A DNA stretch of 32,000 bases from Cupriavidus necator (GCF_016127575.1 NZ_CP066019.1:510001-542000); one strand, 5' to 3'; shown: positions 1 through 31,186, counted from the first letter of the stretch. Notes: a model not told the origin generated them from the sequence alone. A program made the numbers and translations.

Positions 1-178
1 GTGCTTCCTCCTGCCGCTGCTTCACCTCGGCTTCCAGCCTGGCCGACAGTTCCATCTGCACGCCGATGACCCCCAGCAGGACGAGCACGAACGCGCCCAG
101 CAGCACCGACATCAGGTCGCCGAAGACGGCCCAGGCCGGTACGGTCGGCTCGACGCCGGCGTCAAGGTCCTCTCTCAT
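1..178 (-). CDS. MotB/OmpA-family stator-like protein, N-terminal 59 codons only (gene continues past the left edge)
   Basis: My own translation of the reverse complement gives MREDLDAGVEPTVPAWAVFGDLMSVLLGAFVLVLLGVIGVQMELSARLEAEVKQRQEEA. It has a single TM helix preceded by the FGDLMS motif, which resembles the MotB/ExbD-type segment carrying the conserved Asp (Asp codon at 116-118). The ATG at 176-178 overlaps the upstream stop (ATGA), indicating translational coupling. Confidence 0.6.
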   Translation of the reverse strand, partial: MREDLDAGVEPTVPAWAVFGDLMSVLLGAFVLVLLGVIGVQMELSARLEAEVKQRQEEA

Positions 179-3100
179 GCCGCCTCTGCGCTGGGCGCTT
201 GCTGGCCGGCGCGCTGCTGCAGGTCCTCAAGGATCTGCTTTTGCGACAGCATGCTCAGGTCGACGACTTCGCGCGCCTGCGCCACGTAGTAGGCCAGTTG
301 CTCGTCGCTGCGCGTCATCGACTTGTCCAGCGCGGCCTCGATGCGCTGCAGGTGGTCGATCAGCTTGCCGTTGGATTCGCTGAACAGCTGCACCGCCACG
401 CCGAAGGCCTCGCCCAGGCTCGCGACTTCCACCGCACTGCCGGTGACCTGCGCGGCGATGTCGGTGAGCTTGCCGGTTTCGGCTTCGACCTTGTCGGTAA
501 AGCGCGTGCCGACGCGGTCCAGCAGGTCCGCCGTGGTGGCGACCAGGGTGTCGACCGCGCTGCGCTGCTCAGTGGAGGCGCGGCTCACGGCATCGAGCAG
601 CGTGCCCAGCGTTTCCAGCATGCGGCTGCGCTCTTCCAGCATGGCGTTGTCGCGCGCCATGCCGTCGGTGAGCTTCTCGCGCAGTTCTGCGATGACCTCC
701 GCGGCGGCCTTGGGCGCTTCGGATGCGGCCTGCATCAGGTGGGCGACTTCGGCGATGGTGCCGGTGGCCTGGGCCTGCGCCTGGGCTGCCATGTCGCGCG
801 CGGTGACGGCCAGCGTCTCGCAGATTTCCTGCTGGCGGCTGACGGTGTGCGCGCTGGCCTGTTCCCATTCCTGGCGCAGCGATGCGGCCATGGTGCCAAG
901 CGTGTCAGTCCAGGCGGCCATGCGTTGCGCGTCCTGCGATGCCAGTTCCGCCTGCAATGTGGTGGCGGCCTTGGGTGCCTCGGCCGCGGCTTGCACCAGG
1001 CGGTCGATTTCGGCGAGTGTGGTGCTGGCATGCGCCTGCGTCTCGGTCGAGATCGCGCGCGCGGTCTGCGCCAGCGCCTCGCAGATCTCCTGCTGGCGCG
1101 TGGCGGCGTGCGTGCTGGCCTGTTCCCACTGCTGGCGCAGCGTGGCGGCGATGGTGCCGAGCGTATCGGTCCAGCCGGCAAAGCGCTGCTCATCGCGCGC
1201 AGCCAGCTCGGCCTGCAGCGCAACGGCCGCCTTTGGGGCATCCGTTGCGGCCTGCACCAGACGGTCGATCTCAGCGAGGGTGCGGCTGGCATGCGCCTGG
1301 GTCTGGGCCGAGATGTCGCGCACGCTCTGCGCCAGCGTCGTGCTGATCTCGTCCTGGCGGCTTACCGTGTGCGCGTTCAGCTGTTCCCATTCCTGGCGCA
1401 ACGCGGCTGTCATGGTGCCGAGCGTATCGGTCCAGGCGGCGAAGCGCTGTGCATCGCGCGCAGCCAGTTCCGCCTGCAGCGCGACGGCCGCCTTCGGCGC
1501 GTCCGACGCGGCTTGCACCAGGCGGTCGATTTCCGCGAGGGTCTGGCTGGCATGCGCCTGGGTCTGGGCCGAGATGTCGCGCACGCTCTGCGCCAGCGTT
1601 GTACTGATCTCGTCCTGGCGGCTTACCGTGTGGGTGTTCAGTTGCTCCCACTCCTGGCGCAGCGCTGCGGTCATGCTGTCGAGCGTATCGGCCCAGGTGG
1701 CAAAGCGCTGTTCGTCGCGCGAGGCCAGTTCCGCCTGCAGCGCAACGGCCGCCTTCGGGGCGTCCGAAGCGGCTTGCACAAGGCGGTCGATTTCCGCGAG
1801 GGTCTGGCTGGCATGCGCCTGGGTCTGGGCCGAGATGTCGCGCACGCTTTGCGCCAGCGTCGTGCTGATCTCGTCCTGGCGGCTTACCGTATGCGCGTTC
1901 AGCTGTTCCCACTCCTGGCGCAGGGCAGTCGTCATGGTGCCGAGCGTATCGGTCCAGGCCGACAGGCGCTGCGCGTCGTGCGCGGCCAGCTGCGTCTGCA
2001 GCCCGGCATGCGACTCGCCCACGGTGCGCACCAGTGTCGCCGCATGCTCGCCGAACGCGGCTGCGGCGGCCGTCAGGGCCTGCCGGTTGTCGCCGGCGAG
2101 CTTCTCGCCGGTGCGCTCCTGGCGCGCCAGCGCCTCGCGCCATGCGTCGGCAGCGCTGGCGGCTGCCGTGTCGAGCCGGGTGGCGACATTGTCCAGCAGC
2201 CCGGCCGAGCGTTGTTCAAAGGTCTGGGCAAAGCCGTCGAGGGATGTGCGCAGGTCCGCTGCCAGTGCCTCGCTCGCGCGTTGATGCCCGGCCAGCGCCT
2301 GGTTCCAGGTATCCGCAACGCCCGCGGTGGCGCTCTCGAAGCGGCTCGATACCCCATCCAGGTGCTGTTGCACGGCTTGGGTCACGTTGTCGCGCAAGGC
2401 CGAGGTTTCGCGTGCCAGGCCCGCCATGGTCGCGTCCACCGCGGGCTGGATCGCTGCGCTTGCGGCACGGGCGCTGTCGGCGATGCTGTCCTTCAGCGAT
2501 TGCTCGACCGAAGACGCCAGGCGCGTGTAGACCACTTCGGTCTTGCCGTGGAAGGCGTCCTGGCTGGCGGCCAGGCGCTCGGTCAGGGCCTGGTTCTGTT
2601 CGGCCATCGTGGTCATCATGGCCTGCATGCGCTCGACCAGTGCCGGCATCACGTCGGCCTGGCGCTGCAGCAGCCGGACCGCTTCATCACGCTGGTGGCC
2701 GCGCGAGTAGGGACGCAGCGTGGTGGCGATGCGGGCATCCAGCGCCTGCGCGGCCTGGATCCGCTCGCGCCGGCACAATGCCGACAACAGGCCCAGCATC
2801 GCGGACGTGGCCACGCCCGCGACCGAGGTGCCGAACGCAAAGCCCAGGCCCTTGACCGGTGCGGCCAGCGAGGCGCGGATGGCCTGCAGGTCGGTGGCGG
2901 TCTCCAGCGCGATGCCGGTGCCGCGCAGGGTCGCCACCATGCCCAGGAACGTGCCCAGCATGCCCAGCAGCACCAGCAGGCCGACCAGGTAGGGTGTCAG
3001 CGCGGGGCCGGGCAGGCCGACGCGCTCGCCTTCCACGCGCAGGCGGGCGCTGTCGCGCAGGCTGGGATGCAGCCGTTCCAGCCAGTTGCCAAGGCTGGCC

Positions 3101-3312
3101 GGCGCTTCGGACAATCCGGCGACGGCCTGCGCCAGCGTGGCGGTGGCCTGGCGGTAGCGGTACAGCTCCAACGCCCCCGCCAGGTAGCAGCCGCCGATCA
3201 GCAGCGTCACGGCCAGCGCCAGGAAGTTCGTGCCTGCATAGCCGGCGGCGATCCAGCACACGATGGCCAGGCCCGCCAGGAAAGCGACAATATGGGTAAG
3301 GTATCGGGTCAT
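175..3312 (-). CDS. Large membrane protein: MotA/ExbB/TolQ-like 4-TM N-terminal domain plus a ~800-aa helical tail with five tandem 87-aa repeats (DUF802-like)
   Basis: The ORF track gives 175..3432. I place the start at the internal ATG at 3310-3312 (MTRYLTHIVAFLAG...), 10 nt after the upstream gene's stop. There are two N-terminal TM helices, then a second pair containing LVLLGMLGTFLGMVATL ... GLGFAFGTSVAGVATSAMLGLL, which resembles the MotA/ExbB/TolQ channel signature. The remainder is low-complexity A/Q/E/L/T-rich sequence with the repeat unit LAEIDRLVQAASDAPKAAVALQAELAARDAQRFAAWTDTLGTMTAALRQEWEQLNAHTVSRQDEISTTLAQSVRDISAQTQAHASxT. Confidence 0.8.
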   Translation of the reverse strand: MTRYLTHIVAFLAGLAIVCWIAAGYAGTNFLALAVTLLIGGCYLAGALELYRYRQATATLAQAVAGLSEAPASLGNWLERLHPSLRDSARLRVEGERVGLPGPALTPYLVGLLVLLGMLGTFLGMVATLRGTGIALETATDLQAIRASLAAPVKGLGFAFGTSVAGVATSAMLGLLSALCRRERIQAAQALDARIATTLRPYSRGHQRDEAVRLLQRQADVMPALVERMQAMMTTMAEQNQALTERLAASQDAFHGKTEVVYTRLASSVEQSLKDSIADSARAASAAIQPAVDATMAGLARETSALRDNVTQAVQQHLDGVSSRFESATAGVADTWNQALAGHQRASEALAADLRTSLDGFAQTFEQRSAGLLDNVATRLDTAAASAADAWREALARQERTGEKLAGDNRQALTAAAAAFGEHAATLVRTVGESHAGLQTQLAAHDAQRLSAWTDTLGTMTTALRQEWEQLNAHTVSRQDEISTTLAQSVRDISAQTQAHASQTLAEIDRLVQAASDAPKAAVALQAELASRDEQRFATWADTLDSMTAALRQEWEQLNTHTVSRQDEISTTLAQSVRDISAQTQAHASQTLAEIDRLVQAASDAPKAAVALQAELAARDAQRFAAWTDTLGTMTAALRQEWEQLNAHTVSRQDEISTTLAQSVRDISAQTQAHASRTLAEIDRLVQAATDAPKAAVALQAELAARDEQRFAGWTDTLGTIAATLRQQWEQASTHAATRQQEICEALAQTARAISTETQAHASTTLAEIDRLVQAAAEAPKAATTLQAELASQDAQRMAAWTDTLGTMAASLRQEWEQASAHTVSRQQEICETLAVTARDMAAQAQAQATGTIAEVAHLMQAASEAPKAAAEVIAELREKLTDGMARDNAMLEERSRMLETLGTLLDAVSRASTEQRSAVDTLVATTADLLDRVGTRFTDKVEAETGKLTDIAAQVTGSAVEVASLGEAFGVAVQLFSESNGKLIDHLQRIEAALDKSMTRSDEQLAYYVAQAREVVDLSMLSQKQILEDLQQRAGQQAPSAEAA
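680..2005 (-). repeat. Five in-frame tandem repeats of 261 bp (87 aa) inside the 175..3312 CDS
   Basis: The anchor motif ctgttccca(t/c)t(c/g)ctggcgca (encoding QEWEQ on the minus strand) recurs at 859, 1120, 1381, 1642 and 1903, an exact 261-bp period. The units anchored at 1381, 1642 and 1903 differ by only about 2-4 mismatches per 90 nt compared by eye. The units at 859 and 1120 are more diverged. Confidence 0.9.
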
Positions 3313-3322
3313 GATGTTCTGG

Positions 3323-4063
3323 TTAGCTGTCCTGCAGCGCCGCCAGCAAGCCTTCAAGGGGCTGCCAGCGGATGTCGAGTTCGGCGAGCAATACGCTCTG
3401 CATATCCTTGCGGAATACCCCCAGCCATGCACCGGGCCTGGCCGTTGCGGGCTGTCCCGCGGCCTGGGCTTCGGCCAGCGCCGCGGCTTCGGCCTGGCGC
3501 AGGCGCTGGAAGTGCGGCTCCAGCATCGTCGGCACGGCGCCCAGCAGGCTCTGTTCGCGCGCGCCCAGCACGCGCTCCATCACGGCATCGACCATGGCCA
3601 GCTTGGCCATGCCGGGTGCGTGGCCGGACAACGCGCCGCGCAGGCGCCCGCGCAGGTCGCCGATCGCGGTCTCCATGGTCTGTTGCAGCGTGAGGTAGCG
3701 CTGGCGATAGACCGCGTAGTCGACCTGCGCGTCCACGGGGTCGGGCAGCGCGGACGGCCGGCCCGGCCCGCGCCGCTTGCCGGCAAGCGTGGTGTCTTCC
3801 ACGATGGCACCGGCCAGCGCGGCGCGCACGCGCGCGCATTCGCGTGCCTCAGTGCTGTCGGCAGCACGTGCGGCAGGCGGCGTTGCCGGCGCATTGGCCT
3901 TCAGCGCCGATGACAGCGCGATCGCGTCCGCCCAGCCAAGCCATTGGCTCAGCTGGCTCGAGAGCGAGCTTGCAGGAGGAGGGGCATCGGCGTCAGTCAG
4001 GCGAGCCAGCAGGCGGACGAGCGTCGGGCCGCTGAAACCTGTGCGCCGGGGCACTTGTAACAT
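3323..4063 (-). CDS. Hypothetical protein (DUF3348-like as I recall the family), first gene of the MotA-like/MotB-like operon
   Basis: 246-aa ORF with an ATG at 4061-4063 and a stop 10 nt before the next gene's start. It is Ala/Leu-rich and soluble with no catalytic motif I recognise. The family assignment is from memory of Burkholderiales annotations next to DUF802/OmpA genes and is not verified. Confidence 0.6.
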   Translation of the reverse strand: MLQVPRRTGFSGPTLVRLLARLTDADAPPPASSLSSQLSQWLGWADAIALSSALKANAPATPPAARAADSTEARECARVRAALAGAIVEDTTLAGKRRGPGRPSALPDPVDAQVDYAVYRQRYLTLQQTMETAIGDLRGRLRGALSGHAPGMAKLAMVDAVMERVLGAREQSLLGAVPTMLEPHFQRLRQAEAAALAEAQAAGQPATARPGAWLGVFRKDMQSVLLAELDIRWQPLEGLLAALQDS

Positions 4064-5036: not shown

Positions 5037-5726
5037 ATGACAAGAAGTCAAGGCGCCGCAGAGAACAACAACGACGCCAGCATCGACGCCAGCGCGTGCC
5101 GCAACTATGCCATCGTGGTGGATGACCACCCGTTGATGGCGCGCGGCATTGCCGGCTACCTTGCGGCGCATTGCGGGTTTGACGCTGCCCTGCATGCAGC
5201 CGATGCGCGGGAATGCGCGGCGCTGACGGAACGGGAGGGCTGCCCGGCGCTGCTGGTGGTGGATTTCTGGCTGCCGGACGGCACCGCGGTCGGGTTGCTG
5301 CGCGAAGCCGCGGCGCGCCTGCCCGCCTGCAAGCTGCTGGTGATGAGCGCCGACGACGATGCGCGCGTTTGCATCAAGGCACGCGAGGCCGGCGCGCACG
5401 GCTTTATCCTGAAGAACGAGCCTCCGGAGGTGTTCGCCACTGCGGTGGCGTCGCTGCGCCAGGGCCGGCGCTGGTTCCAGCAGGCGGGGCCGCCGTCGGC
5501 GCGGCGCGAGTTGCCGCTGGAGCCCAGCGAACTGGGCCTGACGGCGCGCCAGGCCGAGGTGCTTGGCATGATGCTGCGCGGCCTGCCGAACAAGCGCATC
5601 GCCATGACCCTGTCGGTGTCGGAGCAGACCGTCAAGGAGCATGTCACCGCGATCCTCGGCAAGCTCGGCGTGCGCAACCGGATCGAGGCTATCGCCCTGC
5701 TGCACGGACGCAGGCTGGAGTCATGA
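5037..5726 (+). CDS. NarL/FixJ (LuxR-type) two-component response regulator
   Basis: The receiver domain has AIVVDDHP, the phospho-acceptor context LLVVDFWLPDG, and FILKN. The C-terminal LuxR HTH is LTARQAEVLGMMLRGLPNKRIAMTLSVSEQTVKEHVTAILGKLGV. Confidence 0.9.
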   Translation: MTRSQGAAENNNDASIDASACRNYAIVVDDHPLMARGIAGYLAAHCGFDAALHAADARECAALTEREGCPALLVVDFWLPDGTAVGLLREAAARLPACKLLVMSADDDARVCIKAREAGAHGFILKNEPPEVFATAVASLRQGRRWFQQAGPPSARRELPLEPSELGLTARQAEVLGMMLRGLPNKRIAMTLSVSEQTVKEHVTAILGKLGVRNRIEAIALLHGRRLES

Positions 5727-7519
5727 AGAAGGCCCTCGCCCGGCTGCTGGGCTTGTCGCGCCCGGATGCGGATGCCGGCATCAGCCCGCGCGCGCGTGCG
5801 CGGTTGCTGGACATGACGTTCGGGCGCCTGGTGTTCAGCGTCAATGCGATTCCGTTCGTGGGGATGCCTTTCGTCATCTGGCTGTATGTCCAGAAGCTGG
5901 ACGGCGGCGCGCTGCTGGCCTGGACACTGGGGTATGGCGCCGCGGCGGTGTGGATGCAATTGCGCTTCCGGCGCTACAAGCAAGAGCGGGAAGACGATGA
6001 CGCCCTGGTCCGGCGCTGGCTGCCGTTTGTGCAGCGCGTGGCGCTGGTGCACGGCTTCTGCCTGTCGCTGGCCGCGGTCCTGACGGCCAGCCTGGGGGGC
6101 TTTGACTTCAAGCTGCTGCTGTATATCAGCATCGCCGCCATCGTGGCGGCCAATGCCACGCACCAGACGCCGATCCTCGGTGTATTCCAGCGCTTCTTCG
6201 TTGCCTGCTGGACTTTGCAGATCGTCAACACCCCGCGCAGCTTCCCTGAGCACTGGCCGTTCGTGCTGCCGCTGGCGCTGCTGTATGCGCTGGCCATCTA
6301 CCGGCACGCGCTGATCGCCAACCAGTTCTTCCGGCAGCAGGTACGGATGGAGGATGACGGCATCCGCCTGGCCGAGCGCTACCGGCTGGCCAAGGAAGAG
6401 GCCGAGAAAGCCCTGCAGGCCAAGAACCTGTTTCTCACCACCGCCAGCCACGACCTGCGCCAGCCCGTGCATGCCATGGGCTTCCTGATCGAAGCCATTG
6501 CGCGGCGCAACCGCGACCCGGCCCTGATCCCGCCGCTGGACGACCTGCGGCGCAGCGTGCGCTCGGTGCACCTGATGTTCAACTCACTGCTCGATCTGTC
6601 CCGGATCGAAGGCGGCATTGCCAGCCCGCGCAATACCGCCGTGGCATTTGCGCCCTTGGTCGAAGAGGTGGCGTCGCTGTTCCGGGAAGAGGCGCGCAGC
6701 CGCGGCCTGGACCTGCGCGTGCGCCTGCCCGCAGGCGCCGCCGCGGTGCTGGCCAATCCCGCACTGCTGCGCCAGTCTCTGGTCAACCTGGTGCACAACG
6801 CGCTGCGCTATACCAAGCGCGGCGGGGTGCTGGTGTCCGCGCGGCGGCGCGGCAGCCACTGGCTGCTGGAGGTCTGGGACACCGGCGTGGGAATCGCGAT
6901 CGAAGAGAAGGGGCGGGTCTACTCGCCGTTCTATCGCAACGAACATGCGTGGCGCATCGACAGCGCGGGCCATGGGCTGGGCCTTGCCGTGGTGGCGCGC
7001 TGCGCCACCCTGATGGGCGCCACCTACGGCCTGGACTCGGTGGAGCGCCGCGGCTCCAGGTTCTGGCTGCGCTTTCCCGAAGCGAAGCCGCTGGCGCCGG
7101 CGGCGATCGAGCCGGTCTACGAACCCGAAGGCCTGTCGGCGTCCACCCTGCTGCAGGGCGTCTGCCTGGTCGTCGAGGACGACCCGCTGGTGACCGCCGC
7201 GTGGACCAGCCTGATGGAGGCCTGGGGCGTGCAGGCGGCGTGCGCGGCGTCGGGGCAGGAAGCCCTGGCACTGGTCGATGCCGGCCTGCAGCCCCAGGCG
7301 ATCCTGTGCGACCAGCGCCTGCGCTCCGGCGAGAGCGGCTTCGAGGTGCTCAAGGCGCTGTTCGAACGCTGCCCGGACGCAAGCGGCGCCATGGTCAGCG
7401 GCGAGTTCGATTCCGAGGCGCTCCAGCAGGCCGAGCGTGAAGGCTATCTGGTCCTGCACAAGCCACTGGAGCCGTCGCAGCTGCATGCCTTGTTGTTCCA
7501 ATGGCTTTGTGCTGCCTGA
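5723..7519 (+). CDS. Hybrid sensor histidine kinase with a multi-TM membrane-embedded sensor and a C-terminal receiver domain
   Basis: The ATG at 5723 overlaps the regulator's stop (ATGA). About 6 hydrophobic segments come first. Kinase motifs follow: H-box TASHDLRQPVHAM, N-box LVHNALRYT, G1 VWDTGVGI and G2 GHGLGLAVV. The receiver has VCLVVEDDP...ILCDQRL...LHKP. Confidence 0.9.
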   Translation: MKKALARLLGLSRPDADAGISPRARARLLDMTFGRLVFSVNAIPFVGMPFVIWLYVQKLDGGALLAWTLGYGAAAVWMQLRFRRYKQEREDDDALVRRWLPFVQRVALVHGFCLSLAAVLTASLGGFDFKLLLYISIAAIVAANATHQTPILGVFQRFFVACWTLQIVNTPRSFPEHWPFVLPLALLYALAIYRHALIANQFFRQQVRMEDDGIRLAERYRLAKEEAEKALQAKNLFLTTASHDLRQPVHAMGFLIEAIARRNRDPALIPPLDDLRRSVRSVHLMFNSLLDLSRIEGGIASPRNTAVAFAPLVEEVASLFREEARSRGLDLRVRLPAGAAAVLANPALLRQSLVNLVHNALRYTKRGGVLVSARRRGSHWLLEVWDTGVGIAIEEKGRVYSPFYRNEHAWRIDSAGHGLGLAVVARCATLMGATYGLDSVERRGSRFWLRFPEAKPLAPAAIEPVYEPEGLSASTLLQGVCLVVEDDPLVTAAWTSLMEAWGVQAACAASGQEALALVDAGLQPQAILCDQRLRSGESGFEVLKALFERCPDASGAMVSGEFDSEALQQAEREGYLVLHKPLEPSQLHALLFQWLCAA

Positions 7520-18053: not shown

Positions 18054-20258
18054 TCAAACCACTCCCATCTCCGGATCGCTGACCGCGTCCTCGCCGGTCT
18101 CCATCCGCCCCGCAAGGCGCCGCGCGAACGACGGGCTGGCCTCGCAGGTCACGACGAAGTCATACCAGTTGCCGCTGTCGGCCACCGGCCATTCCAGCGT
18201 TTCCACCTTGCCCCGCTTCAGGCTTTGGGTCCACGGGCCGTCGTCGCGGTAGGCCAGCGCCGTGACGGTGAAGGTCACGTCGGCATCGCTGTCGTTATGC
18301 AGCTTCACCTGGATCGTGGGCTTCCTGCACGGGTTGTAGCAGACCTGGATTTCGGTGGACGTGGTCACCGCTTCGTTGATATCGCCGGAGAACGAGCGGT
18401 GATAGCCGTTGGGCCCCAGCACCCACAGGTCGTACTTGCCGCCGTCGGCATTGATGTTCCACACGTCGTCCAGCGTCTTGCCGGCTTCGACCACGTAGCG
18501 GCGCGGAATGCGGTCGAGGTGCAGCTTGTCATAGACGTGGAACAGCGCGCCGGCCTGGTTGGTGCTGGCGTTGGCGAACAGCAGGCGGACTGCCTTGGAT
18601 GCGGCATCGACGCGTGCACTGGTATGCAGTTCATATGGCAGCTTGCGCGACGGACGCGTGCCGGTGTCCTGCTCAGGCAGCGCGGGCGTGGCCGGCACCG
18701 GGATCGCCGGCTGGGTCTGCTGCCATGCGGTCAGGCTGGTGGCGTCGGCACGGGTGGTGCGGCCGGCCAGCGTGGGCAGGGTCTCGGTGTTGGGCGTGGC
18801 AAAGTTGAAGGCGCTGGTCAGGTCGCCGCAGATGGCACGACGATAGGCGCTGATCTGCGGCTCCATCACGCCGAAGCGCGCCTCCAGGAAGCGCAGCACC
18901 GAGGTGTGGTCGAACACTTCAGAGTTGACCCAGCCGCCGCGGCTCCACGGCGACACCACCCACAGCGGCACGCGCGGGCCGGGGCCGAAGGGCTTGCCGT
19001 CCTGCGGCGGCTGCTTGGCCGTGGCGGGCTGGAAGTTGAAGTACTCGTACGCCATCTGCGCGTCGTCGAGGGTCGACTTGCCGGCCAGCGTGCCGTCCAG
19101 GTTGCGCGACGGCGCGGTCGGCGGCGGGCTGTGGTCGAAGAAGCCGTCGTTCTCGTCGAAGTTGATCAGCAGCACGGTCTTGCTCCAGACCTCGGGCGAT
19201 GCCGTCAGCGCGTCCAGGATGGCCTGCACGTACCAGCCGCCCTTGGCCGGGCTGGACGGGCCGGGGTGCTCGCTGAACTCGGCCGGCGGGATGATCCACG
19301 ACACCTCGGGCAGCTTGCCGTTGAGCACGTCGTCGCGCAGCGACTGCAGGAAGCCGCCGTCGGACATGGTGTTGCAGAAGCCCTTGGCCAGCGGGCTGTA
19401 CTGGTCGTCGATGTCGGGGTTGTAGGGCGGGTTGACGCCGGTGCCGGCGGTGTTGGAGAGCTTGCGTCCGACGGGCATCTTCTCCATCTCTGCGCGCCAG
19501 TGCCGGAAGCTCATCATCTGGTTGCAGCCATAGTTGTCCGGCACGTTCTGGTAGACCTTCCAGCCCACGCCGGCGGCCTGCAGGCGGTCGGCATAGGTTT
19601 TCCAGGTCCAGCCTTCGGTGGAGGGGCCAACATCCGCGCCCGCGTTGAACTCGTTAATCATCACCGCGACGTTGTCGCCGGTGGGACCATTGCTGCCGGT
19701 CCAGTAGAACAGGCGGTTGGGAATGGTGCCGGTGTGCATCGCGCAGTGGTAGGCATCGCACAGCGTGAAGGCGTCAGCCAGCGCGCGCTGGAACGGGATC
19801 TCGGCGTCATCGTAGTAGCCCATCGACAGCGCTTTCTTCGCGACCGGCCAGCGGTCCATGCGCCCGTGGTCCCACGCGGCCTGCGCATCGGGCCAGGTGT
19901 GCGGCGTGCCGCCCGCGCGCTGCGCGTTGCCCTGGGTTTCGTCGAGATGGTAGGGCGTCAGGAGGTTGCCGTTGGCATCGGTCTGGTAGAACGCGTTCTT
20001 GCCATTGGGCAACGGGATCGCGAAGCGGTCGCCGTAGCCGCGCACGCCCTTGAAGGTGCCGAAGTAGTTGTCGAACGAGCGGTTTTCCAGCATCACCATC
20101 ACGACGTGCTTGACGTCCTGGATGGTGCCGGTGGCGTTGTTGGCCTCGATGGCGAGCGCGCGGCGGATGCTGGGCGGAAAGCTGGCCAGCACCGCGGCGG
20201 CGGCGCCGGTGCCGAGGCTGGTCTTGAGGAAATGTCGCTTAGACGGGTTGAAGGTCAT
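18054..20258 (-). CDS. plcN: Phosphocholine-specific (non-hemolytic) phospholipase C, Tat-exported
   Basis: The N-terminus is MTFNPSKRHFLKTSLGTGAAAAVLA (Tat-like). HVVMVMLENRSFDNYFGTFKGVRGYGD is the phosphoesterase-family signature. The length is 734 aa and the C-terminal region is consistent with DUF756 repeats. The start is the ATG at 20256-20258; the track ORF extends to 20375. Confidence 0.85.
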   Translation of the reverse strand: MTFNPSKRHFLKTSLGTGAAAAVLASFPPSIRRALAIEANNATGTIQDVKHVVMVMLENRSFDNYFGTFKGVRGYGDRFAIPLPNGKNAFYQTDANGNLLTPYHLDETQGNAQRAGGTPHTWPDAQAAWDHGRMDRWPVAKKALSMGYYDDAEIPFQRALADAFTLCDAYHCAMHTGTIPNRLFYWTGSNGPTGDNVAVMINEFNAGADVGPSTEGWTWKTYADRLQAAGVGWKVYQNVPDNYGCNQMMSFRHWRAEMEKMPVGRKLSNTAGTGVNPPYNPDIDDQYSPLAKGFCNTMSDGGFLQSLRDDVLNGKLPEVSWIIPPAEFSEHPGPSSPAKGGWYVQAILDALTASPEVWSKTVLLINFDENDGFFDHSPPPTAPSRNLDGTLAGKSTLDDAQMAYEYFNFQPATAKQPPQDGKPFGPGPRVPLWVVSPWSRGGWVNSEVFDHTSVLRFLEARFGVMEPQISAYRRAICGDLTSAFNFATPNTETLPTLAGRTTRADATSLTAWQQTQPAIPVPATPALPEQDTGTRPSRKLPYELHTSARVDAASKAVRLLFANASTNQAGALFHVYDKLHLDRIPRRYVVEAGKTLDDVWNINADGGKYDLWVLGPNGYHRSFSGDINEAVTTSTEIQVCYNPCRKPTIQVKLHNDSDADVTFTVTALAYRDDGPWTQSLKRGKVETLEWPVADSGNWYDFVVTCEASPSFARRLAGRMETGEDAVSDPEMGVV

Positions 20259-20304
20259 GGCTGTCGCTGGTCGGTCTGTCGCTGGATCGGAAAGCGGGCC
20301 CGCA

Positions 20305-20514
20305 TCACGGGGCGCAACGCGTGGTGCAGGTGCCGGGCTGGTCAGGCTTGCCTGGCTGGTCCGGCTTGGTGCCATTGGCGCCGCTGGGCTGGAGGGTGCC
20401 GCCCGTCGCGCCCGGCGAATCGTCGCCGCCGCAGGCGGTAAGCATCAGTGCGAGGGTGAGGGTGCCGGCCGCCAGCCATGGCCGGGCGGAACGCGACAGC
20501 AATGAAGGTCTCAT
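20305..20514 (-). CDS. Small putative lipoprotein (69 aa) upstream of plcN
   Basis: The signal peptide has a lipobox (LALMLTAC). The mature part is G/P/T/D-rich with a tandem KPDQPG-KPDQPG and a C-terminal CTTRC. Third codon positions are mostly G/C, as in neighbouring genes. It lies 46 nt upstream of plcN on the same strand. I recognise no homolog. Confidence 0.45.
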   Translation of the reverse strand: MRPSLLSRSARPWLAAGTLTLALMLTACGGDDSPGATGGTLQPSGANGTKPDQPGKPDQPGTCTTRCAP

Positions 20515-24318: not shown

Positions 24319-26046
24319 ATGAGCAGTTCAACCGACAAGTTCTCGGCCACCATGCGCGATGGCCTGGCCGATCTTGCCCGCCGCCTGCGCTTCGCCATGG
24401 AGGAGGGTGCGATCTGGCTGGACGAGCAGCGCATGATCCTGATCCATACCGCCGCCCTGGGCGCGCTGCGCAAGGAACTGGTGGACACCCTGGGCATGGA
24501 GCGCGCGCGCGGCCTGTTCATGCGCATGGGCTTCCATTCGGGCATGCGCGATGCGGAGGTCGCGCGCAAGCTGCGCGCCGGCCACAGCGACTTCGGCCAG
24601 CTGGAGATCGGGCCCTGCCTGCATACCATCGAGGGGGTGGTGCGGGTCACGCCGGTCAAGGTCGACATCGACATCGCCGCCGGCATCTACGATGGCGAAT
24701 TCCTGTGGGAAGACTCCTTCGAGGGCGACGTCCACCGCCAGCTGTTCGGCATCGTCGACGAGCCTGCCTGCTGGATGCAGATCGGCTACGCCACCGGCTA
24801 CACCTCGGCGCTGATGGGGCGCACCATCCTGTACCGCGAGGTCGAGTGCATCGCCTGCGGCCATCCGCACTGCCGCATCATCGGCAAGCCGGTGGAAGCC
24901 TGGGAAGACGGCACGCAGGCGCTGGCGCTGTACCAGCCCGATCCCGTGATCGAAACCATCATCGCCTTGCAGAGCGAGGTAGAGCACCTGCGCGCGCTGC
25001 AGGGCACCCCGGCCACGCCGGCCGACCTGGTCGGCACCTCGCCCGGCTTCCGTGCCGCCTGGGGCCTGCTGCAGCGGGCCGCGGCCAGCAACGTGACGGT
25101 GCTGCTGCTGGGCGAGACCGGCGTGGGCAAGGAGCGGTTCGCGCAGGCGCTGCACAGCGTGAGCGGGCGCGCCGACAAGCCCTTCATTGCCGTGAACTGC
25201 GCGGCGATTCCCGATGAGCTGATCGAGTCCGAGCTGTTCGGCGTGGAAAAGGGCGCCTTCACCGGCGCCAGCCAGTCGCGCCCCGGGCGCTTCGAGCGTG
25301 CGCATGGCGGCACGCTGTTCCTGGACGAACTGGGCGAGCTGTCGGCCTCGGCCCAGTCCAAGCTGCTGCGCGTGCTGCAGGAAGGCGAGGTCGAGCGCGT
25401 GGGCGGCACCGGCACGCGCAAGGTGGATGTGCGGCTGGTGGCCGCCACCAATGTCGACCTGGCCGAAGCCGTGAAGCAGGGCACCTTCCGCAAGGACCTG
25501 TACTACCGCCTCAACGTCTACCCGGTCACGATCCCGCCGCTGCGCGAGCGCCTGGACGACATCCGGCCGCTGGCCGAGCGCTTCGTGGCCCGCTACGGCG
25601 CGCGCCACGGCAAGCGCATCGTCGGCATCACCGACCGCGCGCTGGCCGAGCTGCGCCACTATGACTGGCCCGGCAATGTGCGCGAACTGGAGAACGTGAT
25701 CGAGCGCGGCGTGATCCTGGCCAGCCAGGGCGGCCAGATCACCGCCGACCACCTGTTCCTGCCGGGCACCGTGGCACCGGTGGTGGATACCGCGCCGCGG
25801 CTGGGCGCGGGCGGCACCTTGCCAGACCTGCGCGAAGCCGCGGTCCATGCGCTGCTGGACCAGATGTCAGAGCAGCAGCTGGCGCTGGGCGACGTCGAGA
25901 CCGTGCTGATGGAGGCGGCCATGCAGCGCGCCGACGGCAACATGAGCCAGGCGGCGCGGTTGCTCGGCATTACGCGGCCGCAGCTGGCGTATCGGTGGAA
26001 GATGCGCGGTACGCGTGCCGGTAACGGGCACGGCAACGGTAACTGA
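24319..26046 (+). CDS. dmpR: Sigma-54-dependent, aromatic-effector-responsive activator of the XylR/DmpR (NtrC) family
   Basis: The N-terminal XylR_N/V4R-type sensor region is [43 protein letters not shown]. The AAA+ core has GETGVGKE and the GAFTGA loop (EKGAFTGA). The C-terminal HTH is [21 protein letters not shown]. The gene lies directly upstream of the phenol hydroxylase operon. Confidence 0.9.
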
Positions 26047-26078
26047 CGCCGTTTCCTCGCCTCAAGTGCCGAGGGTTT

Positions 26079-26109
26079 GCTCCCCTCTCCCGCTTGCGGG
26101 AGAGGGAGC
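26079..26109. repeat. GC-rich imperfect palindrome (REP-like hairpin) just downstream of the activator gene
   Basis: gctcccctctcccgc-tt-gcgggagagggagc forms a 14-bp stem with one bulged base. There is no T-tract. It resembles the palindromic intergenic elements common in Cupriavidus/Burkholderia genomes, which is my recollection and not verified. Confidence 0.4.
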
Positions 26110-26360
26110 GCGCCGGTGGTCATCAACATCGATCGCGTCTTCCACGCGCCTCGAATTCCAGCTTCTTCCCCACTTGATCATTTGATGCAGCCCCTCCGGG
26201 CCGCGCATCGGCCCGAAGTTGCCCGATGCTGCACCGCGCCAGCGATTTTTCCCTGCCAGATCAAGTCTTCTCACCCAGGTTGCCCACGCACGCTGCTGCG
26301 CCGCAGGGCAATCCCATCCGCATCTGCTCGCTGCCCGCAAACGCCCGCCCGGCGCGGCTT

Positions 26361-26406
26361 TTGATCATTTGATCAAGACCTGTGCGCAGCTTCATCAATT
26401 CATCGA
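26361..26406 (+). promoter_or_regulatory. Two candidate DmpR/XylR-type upstream activator sites (UAS)
   Basis: TTGATCATTTGATCAA (26361-26376, dyad-symmetric) and TTCATCAATTCATCGA (26391-26406) have centres 30 bp apart. They lie roughly 100-130 bp upstream of the -24 element. This geometry and the TTGATCA-type half-sites match the UAS layout of the Pu/Po promoters. Confidence 0.55.
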
Positions 26407-26494
26407 TGCGTTTCGCGCGGACCTTTCCGGGTTAACGCGCACGCTCGCCATCGCCGATTCCCCGTAACCCTTGTCCCACAACGCTTCGCGCTTG

Positions 26495-26510
26495 CTGGCA
26501 CGGTCTTCGC
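26495..26510 (+). promoter_or_regulatory. Sigma-54 (-24/-12) promoter of the phenol hydroxylase operon
   Basis: TGGCACGGTCTTCGCA reads as GG-N10-GC with one mismatch to the TGGCAC-N5-TTGC consensus. It sits about 40 bp upstream of the dmpK-like ATG and downstream of a sigma-54 activator gene. Confidence 0.7.
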
Positions 26511-26548
26511 AGTAAGGCCTGCGTCCAGCCAACGCAACGGAGCGCGCC

Positions 26549-26773
26549 ATGAACACCCCGTCGGTTCCCCTGTTCGAAGCCACGCCGCGCTATGTGCGGG
26601 TCGAGGGCCGCACCCCCGAAGGGTTTGTGCAGTTCGCCTTCAGCGTGGCCGACCCGGAGCTCAACGTCGAACTGATCATGCCGGAACCGATGTTCGAAGC
26701 CTTCTGCTGCGTCAACCGCGTGCGCTTCCTGCCCCCGCTGGAAACCGCGCCGCAGCCGCAAGCCGACGACTGA
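26549..26773 (+). CDS. dmpK: Phenol hydroxylase P0 subunit (assembly protein, DmpK-like)
   Basis: A 74-aa ORF is the first gene of the operon and has GGAG 7 nt upstream. Position and size fit the DmpK/PoxA class. Sequence recognition is weaker than for the other subunits. Confidence 0.7.
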   Translation: MNTPSVPLFEATPRYVRVEGRTPEGFVQFAFSVADPELNVELIMPEPMFEAFCCVNRVRFLPPLETAPQPQADD

Positions 26774-26823
26774 CGCCGCAGCCACCGCATCACAAAGAGA
26801 GAAGGGATACAGGAGACCAAGCG

Positions 26824-27819
26824 ATGCAAGTCGATATCAAGACCCAGCAGATCCAGCCGCTGCGCCAGACCTACGGCCATGTCGCGCGCCGCTTCGGCGA
26901 CAAGCCGGCGTCGCGCTACCAGGAGGCGACCTACGACGTGCAGTCTGAGGTGAACTTCCACTACCGCCCCACCTGGGACCCAGGCTTCGAGCTGTATGAC
27001 AAGCGCCGCACGGCGATCGTGATGCAGGACTGGTACGCGCTGAAAGACCCGCGCCAGTTCTACTACGGCGCCTACGTGACCGCGCGTGGGCGCCAGCAGG
27101 ATGCAACCGAAAAGAGCTTTGCCTTCGTCGAGAAGCGCGGGCTGCTGCAGGCGCTGCCGGCCGAATGGCAGGAACGCCTGGCCGTTGGCCTGCTGCCGCT
27201 GCGCCATGTGGAGTGGGGCGCCAACATGAACAACTTCTACTGCGCCGACTATGGCTGGGGCACGGCCATCACGCAGGCCTGCACCTATTGCGCGATGGAC
27301 CGCCTGGGTATCGCCCAATACCTGTCGCGCATCGGCATGCTGCTGGACGGCAATACCGGCGTGGCGCTGGAGCGGGCCAGGGTGGCCTGGCTGGAGAGCG
27401 CCGCGTGGCAGCCGCTGCGCCGCTTTGTCGAGCACACCTTTGTCACCGGGGACTGGTTCGAGACCTTCGTCGCACAGAACCTGGTGCTCGACGGACTGCT
27501 CTACCCGCTGGTCTACCAGCATGCCGACGCGGTGATCGCGCGCGCCTGCGGCACCGGGCTGGCGGTGCTGACCGAATTCATGAACGACTGGCGCGACGAG
27601 CACGCACGCTGGGTCGATGCCGTGATCCAGGCCGCAGCGGCCGAGTCCGACGCCAACCGCGCGCTGCTGTCGGGCTGGGCGCGCGCCGCCTGCGCCGAGG
27701 TGGCGCAGGCGCTGGTGCCGGTGGCCGATGCGCTCACCGGCGAAGACGGCGCGCAGATGGTGGCGCTGTGCCGCGAGCAGTTCGAAGTCCGCCTGGGCAG
27801 GCTCGGCCTGGCTGCCTGA
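26824..27819 (+). CDS. dmpL: Phenol hydroxylase P1 (beta) subunit
   Basis: 331 aa. MQVDIKTQQIQPLRQTYGHVARRFGDKPASRYQEATYDVQSEVNFHYRPTWDP...DWYALKDPRQFYYGAYV is typical of DmpL-type subunits. Confidence 0.9.
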   Translation: MQVDIKTQQIQPLRQTYGHVARRFGDKPASRYQEATYDVQSEVNFHYRPTWDPGFELYDKRRTAIVMQDWYALKDPRQFYYGAYVTARGRQQDATEKSFAFVEKRGLLQALPAEWQERLAVGLLPLRHVEWGANMNNFYCADYGWGTAITQACTYCAMDRLGIAQYLSRIGMLLDGNTGVALERARVAWLESAAWQPLRRFVEHTFVTGDWFETFVAQNLVLDGLLYPLVYQHADAVIARACGTGLAVLTEFMNDWRDEHARWVDAVIQAAAAESDANRALLSGWARAACAEVAQALVPVADALTGEDGAQMVALCREQFEVRLGRLGLAA

Positions 27820-27851
27820 TCCGCCCACGACGTACCCCACGGAGACACGCC

Positions 27852-28133
27852 ATGTCAGCCACCGCTGCCAACGTCTATATCGCCCTGCAGAACAACGACG
27901 ACACCCGACCCATCATCGACGCCATCACCGAGGCCAACCCGCATGCGGTGGTGTCGCAGTTTCCCGCCATGGTCAAGATCGACGCCCCCGGCCACCTGAC
28001 CATCGTGCGCGAACTGGTGGCCGGCAAGCTCGGCCGCGACTGGGACCTGCAGGAGATCCACCTGAACCTGATCTCGCTGTGCGGAAACATCGACGAAGAC
28101 GAAGACGCCTTCACGCTGCGCTGGAACGCCTGA
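27852..28133 (+). CDS. dmpM: Phenol hydroxylase P2 (regulatory/effector, MmoB/DmpM family)
   Basis: 93 aa. VYIALQNNDDTRPIIDAITEANPHAVVSQFPAMVKIDAPGHLTI...WDLQEIHLNLISLCGNIDEDEDAFTLRW. The ATG at 27852 lies within a longer out-of-context track ORF (27165..28133). Confidence 0.9.
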   Translation: MSATAANVYIALQNNDDTRPIIDAITEANPHAVVSQFPAMVKIDAPGHLTIVRELVAGKLGRDWDLQEIHLNLISLCGNIDEDEDAFTLRWNA

Positions 28134-28168
28134 CCGGGCAGCGGCACACAGAACATCACGGAGACATC

Positions 28169-29689
28169 ATGGACGCACGCAAGAAGCTCAACCTGCGCGA
28201 GAAGTACGCCTCGATGACGCGGGACCTGGCCTGGGAAACGACCTACGAGCCGATGGACAAGGTCTTCCCGTTCGACAAGTACGAGGGCATCCGCATCCAC
28301 GACTGGGACAAATGGGAAGACCCGTTCCGCATGACCATGGATGCCTACTGGAAGTACCAGTCGGAGAAGGAGCGCAAGCTGTACGCGATCATCGACTCGT
28401 TCGTGCAGAACAACGGCCACCTGAACGTATCCGACCCGCGCTACCTGAACGCGCTGCGGTTGTTCCTGACCGGCGTGACGCCGCTGGAATACGCCGCCCA
28501 CCGCGGCTACGCGCACCTGGGCCGCCATTTCCGCGGCGCCGGCGCGCGCGTGGCGGCGCAGATGCAGTCGGTCGACGAGCTGCGCCACGCCCAGACCCAG
28601 CTGCACACGCTGTCGGTCTACAACAAGTACTTCCACGGCTTTGGCGAATGGCGCCACATGCACGACCGGGTCTGGTACCTGTCGGTGCCCAAGTCCTACT
28701 TCGAGGACGCGATGAGCGCGGGGCCGTTCGAGTTCATCACCGCGATCTCGTTCTCGTTCGAGTATGTGCTGACCAACCTGCTGTTCATGCCGTTCATGTC
28801 CGGCGCCGCCTACAACGGCGACATGGCCACGGTGACCTTCGGCTTCTCCGCGCAGTCCGACGAGTCGCGCCACATGACGCTGGGCCTGGAAGTGGTCAAG
28901 TTCCTGTGCGAGCAGGACCCCGGCAATATCCCGATCCTGCAGAAGTGGCTGGACAAGTGGTTCTGGCGCGGCTTCCGACTGCTCACGCTGGTCGGCATGA
29001 TGATGGACTACATGCTGCCCAAGCGCGTGATGTCGTGGGCCGAGGCCTGGGAGATGTACTTCGAGCAGGCGGGCGGGGCCCTGTTCAAGGATCTGGAGCG
29101 CTACGGCCTGCGCATGCCCAAGTACCACGAAGTGGCCACCAGGACCAAGGACCGCATCACGCACGAGGCCTGGGCCACCTTCTACAACTACGCGGGCGCC
29201 GCCGGCTTCCACACCTGGGTGCCCAAGGCCGACGAGATGGCATGGCTGGCCGAGAAGTACCCCCAGACCTTCGAGCGCTACTACAAGCCGCGCCTGGACC
29301 ACTGGCAGGAGCGCCAGCAGGCCGGCGAGCGCTTCTACAACACCACGCTGCCGATGCTGTGCCAGACCTGCCAGATCCCGATGGTGTTCTCGGAGCCGGA
29401 CGACCCGACCCAGACCTGCTACCGCGAAAGCAGCTACCACGGCATGAAGTTCCATTTCTGCTCGGACGGCTGCAAGGACATCTTCGACGACGAGCCCGCC
29501 AAGTACGCGCAGGCCTGGCTGCCGGTGCACCAGATCTACCAGGGCAACTGCGGCGGCGCCACGCTGGAGGACGTGCTCAAGTGGTACCGGCTGAACCCGG
29601 GCGCTGACAACCTCGACTTCGAGGGCTCGCAGGACCAGCGCAACTGGAACGCGTGGAAGGGCATCGGGCCTGCCGCGGACGCCGCCTGA
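28169..29689 (+). CDS. dmpN: Phenol hydroxylase P3 (alpha, diiron oxygenase) subunit
   Basis: 506 aa. The diiron ligand motifs are VDELRH and SDESRH. The C-terminal Cys cluster is CQTCQIP...HFCSDGC. The N-terminus MDARKKLNLREKYASMTRDLAWETTYEP is typical of the family. Confidence 0.95.
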   Translation: MDARKKLNLREKYASMTRDLAWETTYEPMDKVFPFDKYEGIRIHDWDKWEDPFRMTMDAYWKYQSEKERKLYAIIDSFVQNNGHLNVSDPRYLNALRLFLTGVTPLEYAAHRGYAHLGRHFRGAGARVAAQMQSVDELRHAQTQLHTLSVYNKYFHGFGEWRHMHDRVWYLSVPKSYFEDAMSAGPFEFITAISFSFEYVLTNLLFMPFMSGAAYNGDMATVTFGFSAQSDESRHMTLGLEVVKFLCEQDPGNIPILQKWLDKWFWRGFRLLTLVGMMMDYMLPKRVMSWAEAWEMYFEQAGGALFKDLERYGLRMPKYHEVATRTKDRITHEAWATFYNYAGAAGFHTWVPKADEMAWLAEKYPQTFERYYKPRLDHWQERQQAGERFYNTTLPMLCQTCQIPMVFSEPDDPTQTCYRESSYHGMKFHFCSDGCKDIFDDEPAKYAQAWLPVHQIYQGNCGGATLEDVLKWYRLNPGADNLDFEGSQDQRNWNAWKGIGPAADAA

Positions 29690-29721
29690 AGCGGCCCCCA
29701 TCACAAGACAAGGAGACAACC

Positions 29722-30081
29722 ATGCCCGTCGTATCCATCGGCGACTACGCCTTCGAGGCGGCCGACCGCGAGGCCGTGTTCCACGGCAACCGGCTGCTCT
29801 ATATCGGCTGGGACGGCCACCTGCTGTTCTGCGCGCCGCATTGCTTCCCGTTCCCGCCGTCGATGCCGCTGCGCGACGTGGTCGACAAGGTGCTGCCCGG
29901 CGTCTACGGCTACCACCCCGACTTTGCCCGCATCGACTGGGGCCAGGTGCAGTGGCTGCGCGGCGGCCAGCCCTGGCAGCCCGACCTGGACCGCTCGCTG
30001 GAAGAGAACGGCCTGGGCCACAAGGACGTGATCCGCTTCCGCACGCCGGGGCTGGACGGCATCGGCGGCAGCCGCAGCTGA
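29722..30081 (+). CDS. dmpO: Phenol hydroxylase P4 (gamma) subunit
   Basis: 119 aa. MPVVSIGDYAFEAADREAVFHGNRLLYIGWDGHLLFCAP. Size and position match DmpO. Confidence 0.85.
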   Translation: MPVVSIGDYAFEAADREAVFHGNRLLYIGWDGHLLFCAPHCFPFPPSMPLRDVVDKVLPGVYGYHPDFARIDWGQVQWLRGGQPWQPDLDRSLEENGLGHKDVIRFRTPGLDGIGGSRS

Positions 30082-30118
30082 GGCGCATGGTCGAACGCAC
30101 CACCGGAAGGAGACCAAG

Positions 30119-31186
30119 ATGTATTCGCTGACCATTGAACCGATCGGGCAGACCATCCCCATCGCTCCCGGGCAGACCGTGCTGGACGCCTGCCTGCGCA
30201 ACGGCGTGTGGCTGCCCCATGCCTGCTGCCACGGGCTGTGCGCCACCTGCAAGGTGCAGGTGGTGGACGGCGAGGTCGAGCAGGGCGAGGCCTCCAGCTT
30301 CGCGCTGATGGATTTCGAGCGCGACAACGGCCAGTGCCTGGCCTGCTGCGCGACCGCGCAGTCGGACCTGGTGATCGAGGCCGACATCGAGGAAGACGCC
30401 GATGCGCTGGGCCTGCCGCTGGCCGACTATCGCGCCGAAGTTGTCGAGACGCGCGCCCTGACGCCCACCATCCTGGGCATCTGGCTGCGTGTGAAGGATG
30501 GTGGACGCACGACCTTCCAGGCCGGTCAGTACGTCAACCTGAACGTGCCGGGCTGCGACCAGCCGCGTGCGTTCTCGCTGGCCAACGCGCCGGGCGACGA
30601 GCTGGTCGAGCTGCACGTGCGGCGCGTGCCGGACGGGCAGGCCACCGGCTACCTGCACGACCAGCTGGCGGTCGGCGACGAATTGTCGTTCTCAGCGCCC
30701 TATGGCCGCTTCTTCGTGCGCAAGTCGGCGCAGGTGCCGATGCTGTTCCTCGCGGGCGGCTCCGGCCTGTCCAGCCCGCGCGCGATGATCCTGGACCTGC
30801 TGGCCGCCGGCGAGACCCTGCCGATGACGCTGGTGCAGGGCGCGCGCAACCGCGGCGAGCTGTACTACGACGCCGAGTTCCAGGCACTGGCGCAGGCCCA
30901 CCCCAACTTCCGCTACGTGCCCGCGCTGTCGGACGAACCCGCCGACAGCGGCTGGAGCGGCGCGCGCGGCTACGTGCATGACGTGCTGCACCAGCTCTAC
31001 GCGCAGGACGGCAATGCCGACTTCCGCGGCCACAAGGCCTACCTGTGCGGGCCGCCGCCGATGATCGAGGCTTGCATCCGCACGCTGATGCAGGGCCGGC
31101 TGTTCGAGGCGGATATCCACACCGAGAAGTTCCTGTCCGCGGCCGATGCGCAGAACAGCGCGCGCAGTCCGCTGTTCAAGATCTGA
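30119..31186 (+). CDS. dmpP: Phenol hydroxylase P5 reductase (2Fe-2S ferredoxin plus FAD/NAD(P)H oxidoreductase)
   Basis: 355 aa. The plant-type 2Fe-2S Cys pattern is ACCHGLCATCKV...CLACC. The flavin motif is RAFSLAN and the NAD motif is FLAGGSGLSSPR. Confidence 0.95.
   Translation: MYSLTIEPIGQTIPIAPGQTVLDACLRNGVWLPHACCHGLCATCKVQVVDGEVEQGEASSFALMDFERDNGQCLACCATAQSDLVIEADIEEDADALGLPLADYRAEVVETRALTPTILGIWLRVKDGGRTTFQAGQYVNLNVPGCDQPRAFSLANAPGDELVELHVRRVPDGQATGYLHDQLAVGDELSFSAPYGRFFVRKSAQVPMLFLAGGSGLSSPRAMILDLLAAGETLPMTLVQGARNRGELYYDAEFQALAQAHPNFRYVPALSDEPADSGWSGARGYVHDVLHQLYAQDGNADFRGHKAYLCGPPPMIEACIRTLMQGRLFEADIHTEKFLSAADAQNSARSPLFKI

Follow-up and report, generated by a model that had tools for sequence, protein, structure and literature searches.

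The closest described relatives of the genes analysed here are the Zorya anti-phage systems, and among them type III. This type was defined by Payne et al. in 2021, and its 6,401 instances roughly equal in number the 7,742 systems of types I and II combined (PMC8565338). In the same study the Zorya III system of Stenotrophomonas nitritireducens DSM 12575 protected E. coli against phages, with protection in liquid culture seen only at a multiplicity of infection (MOI) below 0.1, and it was proposed that ZorF and ZorG regulate ZorAB. Zorya III is the third subtype in the lists of Hu et al. (2024) and Mariano et al. (2025) (PMC11946911, PMC11890865), with the canonical gene order zorGABF (PMC11946911), and it is common in Burkholderia, Ralstonia, Paraburkholderia, Xanthomonas and Stenotrophomonas (PMC11890865). 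Here, we analysed a 32,000-nucleotide stretch of Cupriavidus necator DNA (GCF_016127575.1 NZ_CP066019.1:510001-542000; below, the window), which lies on chromosome 2 of strain H16 (AM260480.1, a record that also covers the region past the left edge of the window), and followed up a prediction made from its sequence alone, which had singled out three genes at its left end as a possible ion-driven envelope machine. These genes very probably form part of a Zorya type III operon, zorG-zorA-zorB-zorF.

Two further lines of published work bear on this locus. The ZorAB motor of type I has a 5:2 stoichiometry, is driven by protons and carries a pentameric tail of 70 nm; Asp26, the tail length and the tail tip are essential, and the system acts directly and is not abortive (PMC11946911). 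For H16 itself, Table S1 of a 2024 electroporation paper lists E6A55_RS21755 as ZorF3, RS21760 as ZorB3, RS21765 as ZorA3 and RS21770 as ZorG3, that is, as Zorya type III (PMC12645576). Thus, this type of system, the protection it gives against phages and the assignment of the H16 locus to it are already published, and the present analysis carries little weight as a discovery. The original prediction was wrong in holding that no function had been assigned to the cluster; the cluster looked uncharacterised because standard annotation still names its genes DUF802, DUF3348, OmpA family and DUF2894. The same prediction had allowed for a characterised housekeeping function; the function assigned in print is defence, and the claim of novelty fails all the same. 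The only new detail here is that the tail of H16 ZorA grew by tandem 87-residue units, the length of which keeps the register of the helix.

Gene content and order of a Zorya type III operon

All four proteins match type III profiles of PADLOC-DB. ZorA matches all four ZorA3 profiles (1199-1650 bits, the highest with PDLC00650 at 1650 bits), ZorG matches ZorG3 (E 1.1e-95), ZorB matches ZorB3 (E 5.5e-24 for the fragment in the window and E 1.2e-116 for the full protein) and ZorF matches ZorF3 (E 7.2e-74). Because of these matches and of the gene order in the source genome, which is the canonical zorGABF on a single strand, the operon can be recognised as that of Zorya type III. Of the earlier description of the module as Zorya-like with different accessory genes, the Zorya architecture holds; the profiles and the zorGABF order show that it is not merely akin to Zorya, it is exactly type III.

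The operon runs on the minus strand. Its first gene, zorG (ZorG3, 246 amino acids; 3323..4063), is separated by a 10-nucleotide gap (3313-3322) from zorA (ZorA3, 1045 amino acids from its ATG; 175..3312), which in turn shares an ATGA overlap (175-178) with zorB (ZorB3; 1..178). The open reading frame of zorA would extend to 3432 if a GTG start were used. Open reading frame listing and translation thus confirmed the tight packing of the three minus-strand genes that had been noticed at first. The window holds the first 59 codons of zorB before its left edge; the full gene, encoding 215 amino acids, was read in the source genome (locus L001, 13135-13782), where it is overlapped by 8 nucleotides by zorF (ZorF3; L001 13775-14470), the downstream DUF2894 gene that had been expected there. 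Promoter and terminator scans found no minus-strand promoter-like site or terminator within the operon, and downstream of zorF their matches are on the opposite strand only. Antisense open reading frames of up to 1164 amino acids lie over zorA, e.g., at 199-3693 on the plus strand; they have no family match and should be treated as artefacts, as expected in repetitive DNA of 70% G+C.

The names of the two soluble partners are used inconsistently. In the texts of Payne 2021 and Mariano 2025, DUF3348 is ZorF and DUF2894 is ZorG, while PADLOC-DB and the order 'zorGABF' have them the opposite way. We use the PADLOC-DB naming (ZorG = DUF3348, ZorF = DUF2894), which matches the papers giving the order zorGABF.

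ZorA and ZorB carry the features of an ion-driven motor

The membrane head of ZorA (residues 1-180; 2773..3312, minus strand) contains four hydrophobic segments, placed by a hydropathy scan at about residues 3-28, 26-51, 100-131 and 155-180. The last two carry the motifs GMLGT(121)FLGM and FGT(162)S(163)VAGVATS, within GMLGTFLGMV at residues 117-126 and GTSVAGVATSAMLGLL at residues 161-176, and T121, T162 and S163 are invariant in 27 species. A profile built from 27 ZorA3 heads and searched against PDB sequences returned one significant solved structure, the type I ZorA of Shewanella (8vvn_C, E 3.7e-5), over residues 107-185, i.e., the region of transmembrane (TM) helices 2 and 3. This alignment spans the two channel-lining helices and places GMLGTFLGM opposite GVIGTFMGL and FGTSVAGVATS opposite FLTSVWGVALS. 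The polar Thr/Ser pair on the channel-lining helices is therefore present, with GT121F and T162/S163 aligned with the GTF and TS of 8vvn_C. Judged by motif position, not by structural superposition, T121 and T162/S163 would be equivalent to T147 and S184 of E. coli ZorA. The profile match upholds the MotA/ExbB-like channel that had been read from the sequence, and the 1045-residue protein with its two channel motifs and long, helical, low-complexity tail was likewise found as predicted.

Among the PADLOC models, ZorA1 (E 2.4e-10) and ZorA2 (E 4.3e-9) match more weakly than ZorA3. In Pfam, DUF802 is the sole significant family, in two stretches (E 5.7e-33, best at residues 321-373). The NCBIfam model ZorA_2 scores 34.6 bits, far under its cut-off of 100, and for this reason NCBI naming misses the type III ZorA. 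Pfam matches to Apolipoprotein and Phasin stay below the curated cut-offs and reflect an amphipathic helical pattern of 11/22 residues, not homology. Apolipoprotein A-IV (E 0.06), the sole return for full-length ZorA in a phmmer search of the PDB, was rejected as compositional; it took the head profile described above to reach a solved ZorA. The identity of a flagellar stator, MotAB, was also discarded, as there is no PF01618 match at E < 1 and the neighbouring genes are metabolic.

The ZorB product begins MREDLDAGVEPTVPAWAVFGDLMSVLL and has a single TM helix. The Asp of its FGDLMS motif is residue 21 (codon 116-118) and is invariant in 78 of 78 sequences. The full protein ends in an OmpA/MotB peptidoglycan-binding domain (Pfam OmpA, E 3.3e-18); its best matches in the PDB are MotB and PomB domains over the C-terminal half, the best being the MotB peptidoglycan-binding domain 3khn (E 4.1e-19). 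Both parts of the predicted MotB-like partner, the TM Asp and the peptidoglycan-binding domain that was to be sought past the window edge, are thus in place.

One homologue of ZorA3, a 637-residue protein 69% identical to the H16 head region, comes from a 2.4-kb contig deposited under the fungus Rhizopus arrhizus, where it is annotated as hypothetical. This entry is most likely bacterial DNA, from an endosymbiont or a contaminant, in a fungal assembly.

ZorG and ZorF are candidate regulators or adaptors

ZorG matches Pfam PF11828 (DUF3348) over its full length (E 6.9e-100), in accordance with the family first suggested for this gene. Its AlphaFold2 model is a soluble, all-alpha protein of nine helices, with a predicted local distance difference test (pLDDT) of 77 and a predicted template-modelling (TM) score of 0.74. 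ZorF matches PF11445 (DUF2894, E 2.5e-70), and its model is of low confidence as a whole (pLDDT 61); the helical domain at the N-terminus is confident, and it is followed by a low-complexity Ala/Pro linker and a basic, Lys/Arg-rich C-terminus. In Foldseek neither model had a match below E 0.3 (for ZorG in the PDB), with TM-scores of about 0.2 in both cases; ESCRT-III/PspA-like rows returned for ZorF, at E > 2, were set aside as noise. The family profiles of both proteins found no match among PDB sequences, and neither protein matches the ZorC, ZorD or ZorE models of PADLOC, so the absence of a ZorC/D/E-like nuclease or helicase noticed at the outset holds for the whole operon. We consider ZorF and ZorG more likely to be regulators or adaptors of the ZorAB machine than nucleases.

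The absence of a recognisable nuclease, helicase or other catalytic domain in either protein, by Pfam, PADLOC, PDB profiles and Foldseek alike, also lends some support to the main mechanistic rival. The same machine could have another output: the ZorAB channel would itself be the effector, gated by ZorF and ZorG, and would drain the proton-motive force so that the infected cell stops or dies, i.e., abortive infection instead of local degradation of phage DNA. The limitation of protection to an MOI below 0.1 is compatible with this, and the role of ZorAB regulators proposed for ZorF and ZorG (PMC8565338) would fit it as well. However, type I Zorya is direct and not abortive (PMC11946911), the ZorF model is of such low confidence that an enzymatic fold may go unrecognised, and the conserved tip of the ZorA tail (see below) suggests that something is recruited there. 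We regard abortive action by the channel as a real possibility, if somewhat short of an even one.

The tail of H16 ZorA grew by tandem 87-residue units

Past residue 180, ZorA consists of an 865-residue cytoplasmic tail that is rich in Ala, Gln, Leu and Thr and poor in Pro; the 815 residues past position 230 contain 21% Ala, 9% Gln, 9% Leu and 7% Glu, and 7 Pro in all. Three parts can be distinguished in it. The proximal tail, or shaft (residues 181-445; 1978..2772, minus strand), carries an old, diverged internal repeat of 55 residues (window about 1978-2360, residues about 318-430; 35-53% identity), visible as self-similarity at lag 55. This repeat is present in most ZorA3 homologues and coincides with the two DUF802 matches; the Pfam family 'DUF802' is thus a piece of the ZorA3 shaft. 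Next come five tandem units of 87 residues (residues 446-880; 673..1977, minus strand), all of which a hidden Markov model of the unit finds as full copies. Units 1 to 5 occupy 1717-1977, 1456-1716, 1195-1455, 934-1194 and 673-933, respectively. At the DNA level, Tandem Repeats Finder reports a period of 261 nucleotides, 5.0 copies and 83% matches over 702..2002. The tail ends in the tip (residues 881-1045; 178..672, minus strand), the 165 residues after the last unit. Among single-copy homologues the mean column identity is 0.84 in the tip and 0.82 in the membrane head, and 0.73 in the shaft. Fourier analysis confined to the hydrophobic positions of the H16 tail gave only a weak peak at 3.6, which we did not use as evidence.

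Units 1-3 are mutually 89-93% identical as proteins, and units 4 and 5 share 59-68% identity with the rest. The synonymous divergence (dS) of units 1-3 is 0.35-0.47, with a ratio of non-synonymous to synonymous divergence (dN/dS) of 0.07-0.15. The repeat units are thus under purifying selection, and units 1-3 are old enough for selection to have tested them.

Could the repeat-built tail be an artefact of assembly, or a neutral or decaying expansion without function? Two observations might be taken that way. The repeats are 70-89% identical at the DNA level, and in short-read contigs from the Logan collection of strains with identical ZorG (L005, L006 and L007) the sequence breaks in zorA at about residues 460-494, where the 261-nucleotide repeats start. 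Since such contigs end at the repeat start, repeat copy number in draft genomes may be unreliable or missing. However, the identical 1045-residue protein is found on 12 contigs, including the finished H16 genome; five units are also present in C. lacunae, Cupriavidus sp. amp6 and C. consociatus; the divergence values given above are those of sequence under selection; the reading frame is intact; and, as described in the next section, every duplication period preserves the helical phase. An artefact or a functionless expansion is therefore, in our judgement, extremely improbable.

Tail length varies between species in steps that keep the helical register

The 87-residue unit occurs in 1, 2, 3, 4 or 5 copies across species, giving proteins of 696-699, 784-785, 871-872, 958-962 and 1045 residues. 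About 105 of the 120 closest cluster representatives have one unit, mostly in proteins of 697-698 residues, and a few have two. A unit-by-unit comparison identifies the last unit as the ancestral one; the three-unit state is retained in Cupriavidus sp. TMH.W2, and the first unit was triplicated in the lineage of H16 and C. lacunae. The same comparison shows independent internal duplications in Paraburkholderia phytofirmans, C. basilensis, C. pinatubonensis and Pusillimonas.

At the same site of the tail (about residue 446), other genera carry expansions of other unit lengths, as seen in 80 species loci (L008-L087). Ten distinct duplication periods were found in these 80 species: 51, 62, 69, 80, 87, 102, 109, 116, 131 and 149 residues. 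The period is 80 residues in Burkholderia, 131 and 102 in Achromobacter, 51 in the P. sacchari group and 62 in the C. gilardii group; those of 69, 109, 116 and 149 residues are each confined to single lineages. In a scan of periodicities between 3.3 and 4.0, the value of 3.63 residues per helical turn brought all ten periods to within 0.1 turn of a whole number. The clustering of their phases (Rayleigh R 0.96) was reached by 0 of 20,000 random sets of ten integers, and the heptad periodicity of 3.5 residues per turn was rejected for the tail, with R = 0.16. We repeated the analysis on 150 more divergent representatives with the periodicity fixed at 3.63. The phases of thirteen new periods again gather around zero (Monte Carlo p = 0.017), more weakly than in the first set, with two of the periods, short or noisy ones, falling out of phase.

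The agreement of the ten periods in phase at 3.63 therefore gives indirect support to one continuous helical bundle, as in a pentameric coiled-coil tail. We infer that the tail is a single bundle, either almost straight or slightly right-handed, like that modelled for type I, in which the shaft would be a spacer that changes its length in register-preserving steps only and the tip would be the business end. The in-phase pattern could come from selection or from recombination between in-phase motifs; both imply the same structure.

A further step would be to regard the length of the ZorA3 tail as selected and tunable, so that type III Zorya would carry a non-nucleolytic signal deep into the cytoplasm through a long mechanical shaft, with a reach adapted to the host or its phages. 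Behind it stand the repeated and independent gain of tandem duplications in the shaft before the conserved tip, the retention of only those lengths that preserve the register, and partners in which no catalytic domain is recognised. If the tail is one continuous helix, with 1.5 Å per residue, the natural allelic series (the 87-residue unit in one to five copies, and the series of 80, 131, 51 and 62 residues) would range from about 78 to 160 nm. We put this forward tentatively, and consider it rather doubtful. In the Zorya papers that we read there is no mention of tail repeats, which is not proof of novelty.

The operon is a stable chromosomal resident

A scan of a genome collection found the genes G-A-B-F on one strand in 75 of 80 species loci; three of the other five loci lack genes at contig or locus ends. 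In the flanks of these loci no fifth conserved partner gene was found. Downstream of the operon, the flank is syntenic among close Cupriavidus relatives and not beyond, and the context differs between genera. Homologues are found on chromids of about 2 Mb; none was in a phage record, and none of the 15 records listed is a small plasmid.

The suggested association with defence islands was not found. The neighbours in H16 are metabolic and regulatory, and the rest of the window holds a glutathione S-transferase (GST) gene, a two-component system, LysR regulators, amidases, TctC receptors, a phospholipase C gene and a phenol-hydroxylase cluster. Thus, the zorGABF operon of H16 is a stable chromosomal resident and not part of a defence island.

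Such a distribution raises the question of whether the cluster might be a housekeeping machine, ion-driven and acting in surveillance or maintenance of the envelope of Burkholderiales and Xanthomonadales, the anti-phage effect being a side effect of overexpression in E. coli. Its breadth (at least 390 species in one scan and 1383 clusters at 50% identity), its synteny among metabolic genes on chromosome 2 of close Cupriavidus relatives, its residence on chromids and the lack of an enzymatic effector would all suit this explanation. However, a type III system gave measurable protection against phages (PMC8565338), type III genes are induced on exposure to phages in Stenotrophomonas and Burkholderia (10.64898/2026.01.02.697320; PMC12584637), the ZorAB core is homologous to proven defence motors, and the differing context between genera is what would be expected of a transferable module. 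A housekeeping role is accordingly improbable, and we retain defence as the probable function of the operon.

Several features were observed in the surroundings of the operon. A hybrid histidine kinase and a GerE-type response regulator (window about 5037-7519; L001 5794-8276) lie between a DUF1254/DUF1214 gene and the GST gene. Two further C. necator assemblies (L002 and L004) lack the pair at the corresponding position, which makes it a strain-level indel next to the Zorya operon. In L004 (CP196549.1, 15238-15975) only fragments of 104 and 140 amino acids are left of the alcohol dehydrogenase and LysR genes that lie downstream of zorF, a deletion having fused the two divergent genes. Further away, a phospholipase C gene is located at 18054-20375, and a cluster of the phenol/alkene hydroxylase type at 24319-31186, with a Phenol_Hydrox large subunit carrying a YHS domain and a Fer2/FAD/NAD reductase; it adjoins an activator of the XylR type for sigma-54. 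Both are unrelated to the Zorya locus.

Proposed mechanism and significance

By homology with the type I and II complexes of known structure, the inner membrane would hold two ZorB subunits encircled by five of ZorA. On perturbation of the envelope by a phage, ZorB would anchor to peptidoglycan, protons would pass Asp21, and ZorA with its pentameric coiled-coil tail would rotate, the tip of the tail handing the signal to soluble partners. In type III these partners would be the alpha-helical ZorG and ZorF, in place of ZorC/ZorD or ZorE. The tail of H16 appears to have gained four additional 87-residue units immediately ahead of its conserved tip. With 24 helical turns in each unit the register would be kept. 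A rise of 1.5 Å per residue would make each unit about 13 nm long and the H16 tail about 130 nm, compared with about 78 nm in the common form of 698 residues.

Some points weigh against this account of the locus. In sequence, the head resembles ZorA1 and ZorA2 only weakly (E 1e-5 to 1e-10), and ZorA has no match to Pfam MotA_ExbB (PF01618) at E < 1. ZorA3 has four hydrophobic segments, while the type I ZorA has three TM helices (PMC11946911). The 5:2 stoichiometry, the rotation and the geometry of the tail are transferred from types I and II, and the searches named above recognise no enzymatic domain or activity in ZorF or ZorG. The type III system tested with phages comes from another order, Xanthomonadales, the H16 system being known from its sequence, and the locus is part of a stable secondary chromosome, with metabolic genes around it, outside any defence island. 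Set beside the profile matches and the conserved gene order, these points leave the assignment to Zorya type III very probable.

The residual interest of the locus thus lies in the effector step of type III and in the register-preserving series of tail lengths, which is a natural experiment on tail length and helical register in ZorAB signalling. It leads to a simple prediction: in-phase insertions, e.g., of 87 or 80 residues, should be tolerated, and out-of-phase insertions, e.g., of 85 or 89 residues, should abolish function. If tail length proves tunable, type III Zorya would be a defence that signals without nucleolysis, through a mechanical shaft with a reach fitted to the host or its phages.

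Comparison with known systems

With MotAB/PomAB and ExbBD/TolQR, ZorAB of H16 shares membership of a family of inner-membrane, ion-driven motors, with an essential Asp and an OmpA-like peptidoglycan-binding domain in the B subunit. It differs from them in that its A subunit finds no MotA_ExbB match in Pfam at the threshold given above, in that no flagellar, TonB or Tol-Pal genes surround the Zorya locus, and in the 865-residue tail of ZorA3, which those motors lack altogether.

The type I ZorAB of E. coli (PMC11946911) and of Shewanella sp. ANA-3 (PDB 8vvn, PMC11890865) is nearer. Common to both types are a MotA-like head with a Thr on TM2 and a Thr/Ser on TM3, the TM Asp and peptidoglycan-binding domain of ZorB, and a very long, helical cytoplasmic tail with a functionally important tip. 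The similarity in sequence is remote, reaching E 3.7e-5 with a profile, and ZorA3 has one hydrophobic segment more than the three TM helices of type I. The partners differ as well: in type III they are small all-alpha proteins, in type I the DNA-binding ZorC and the nuclease ZorD. In addition, the type III tail can be much longer and is partly built of tandem units.

The Zorya III system of S. nitritireducens is the closest of all, with the same four families (ZorA3, ZorB3, DUF3348 and DUF2894) and with gene order, strand and taxonomic range alike. What sets H16 apart from other Zorya III systems is its long allele of ZorA, with 1045 residues and five 87-residue units, whereas the form commonest among its close relatives has 697-698 residues and a single unit.

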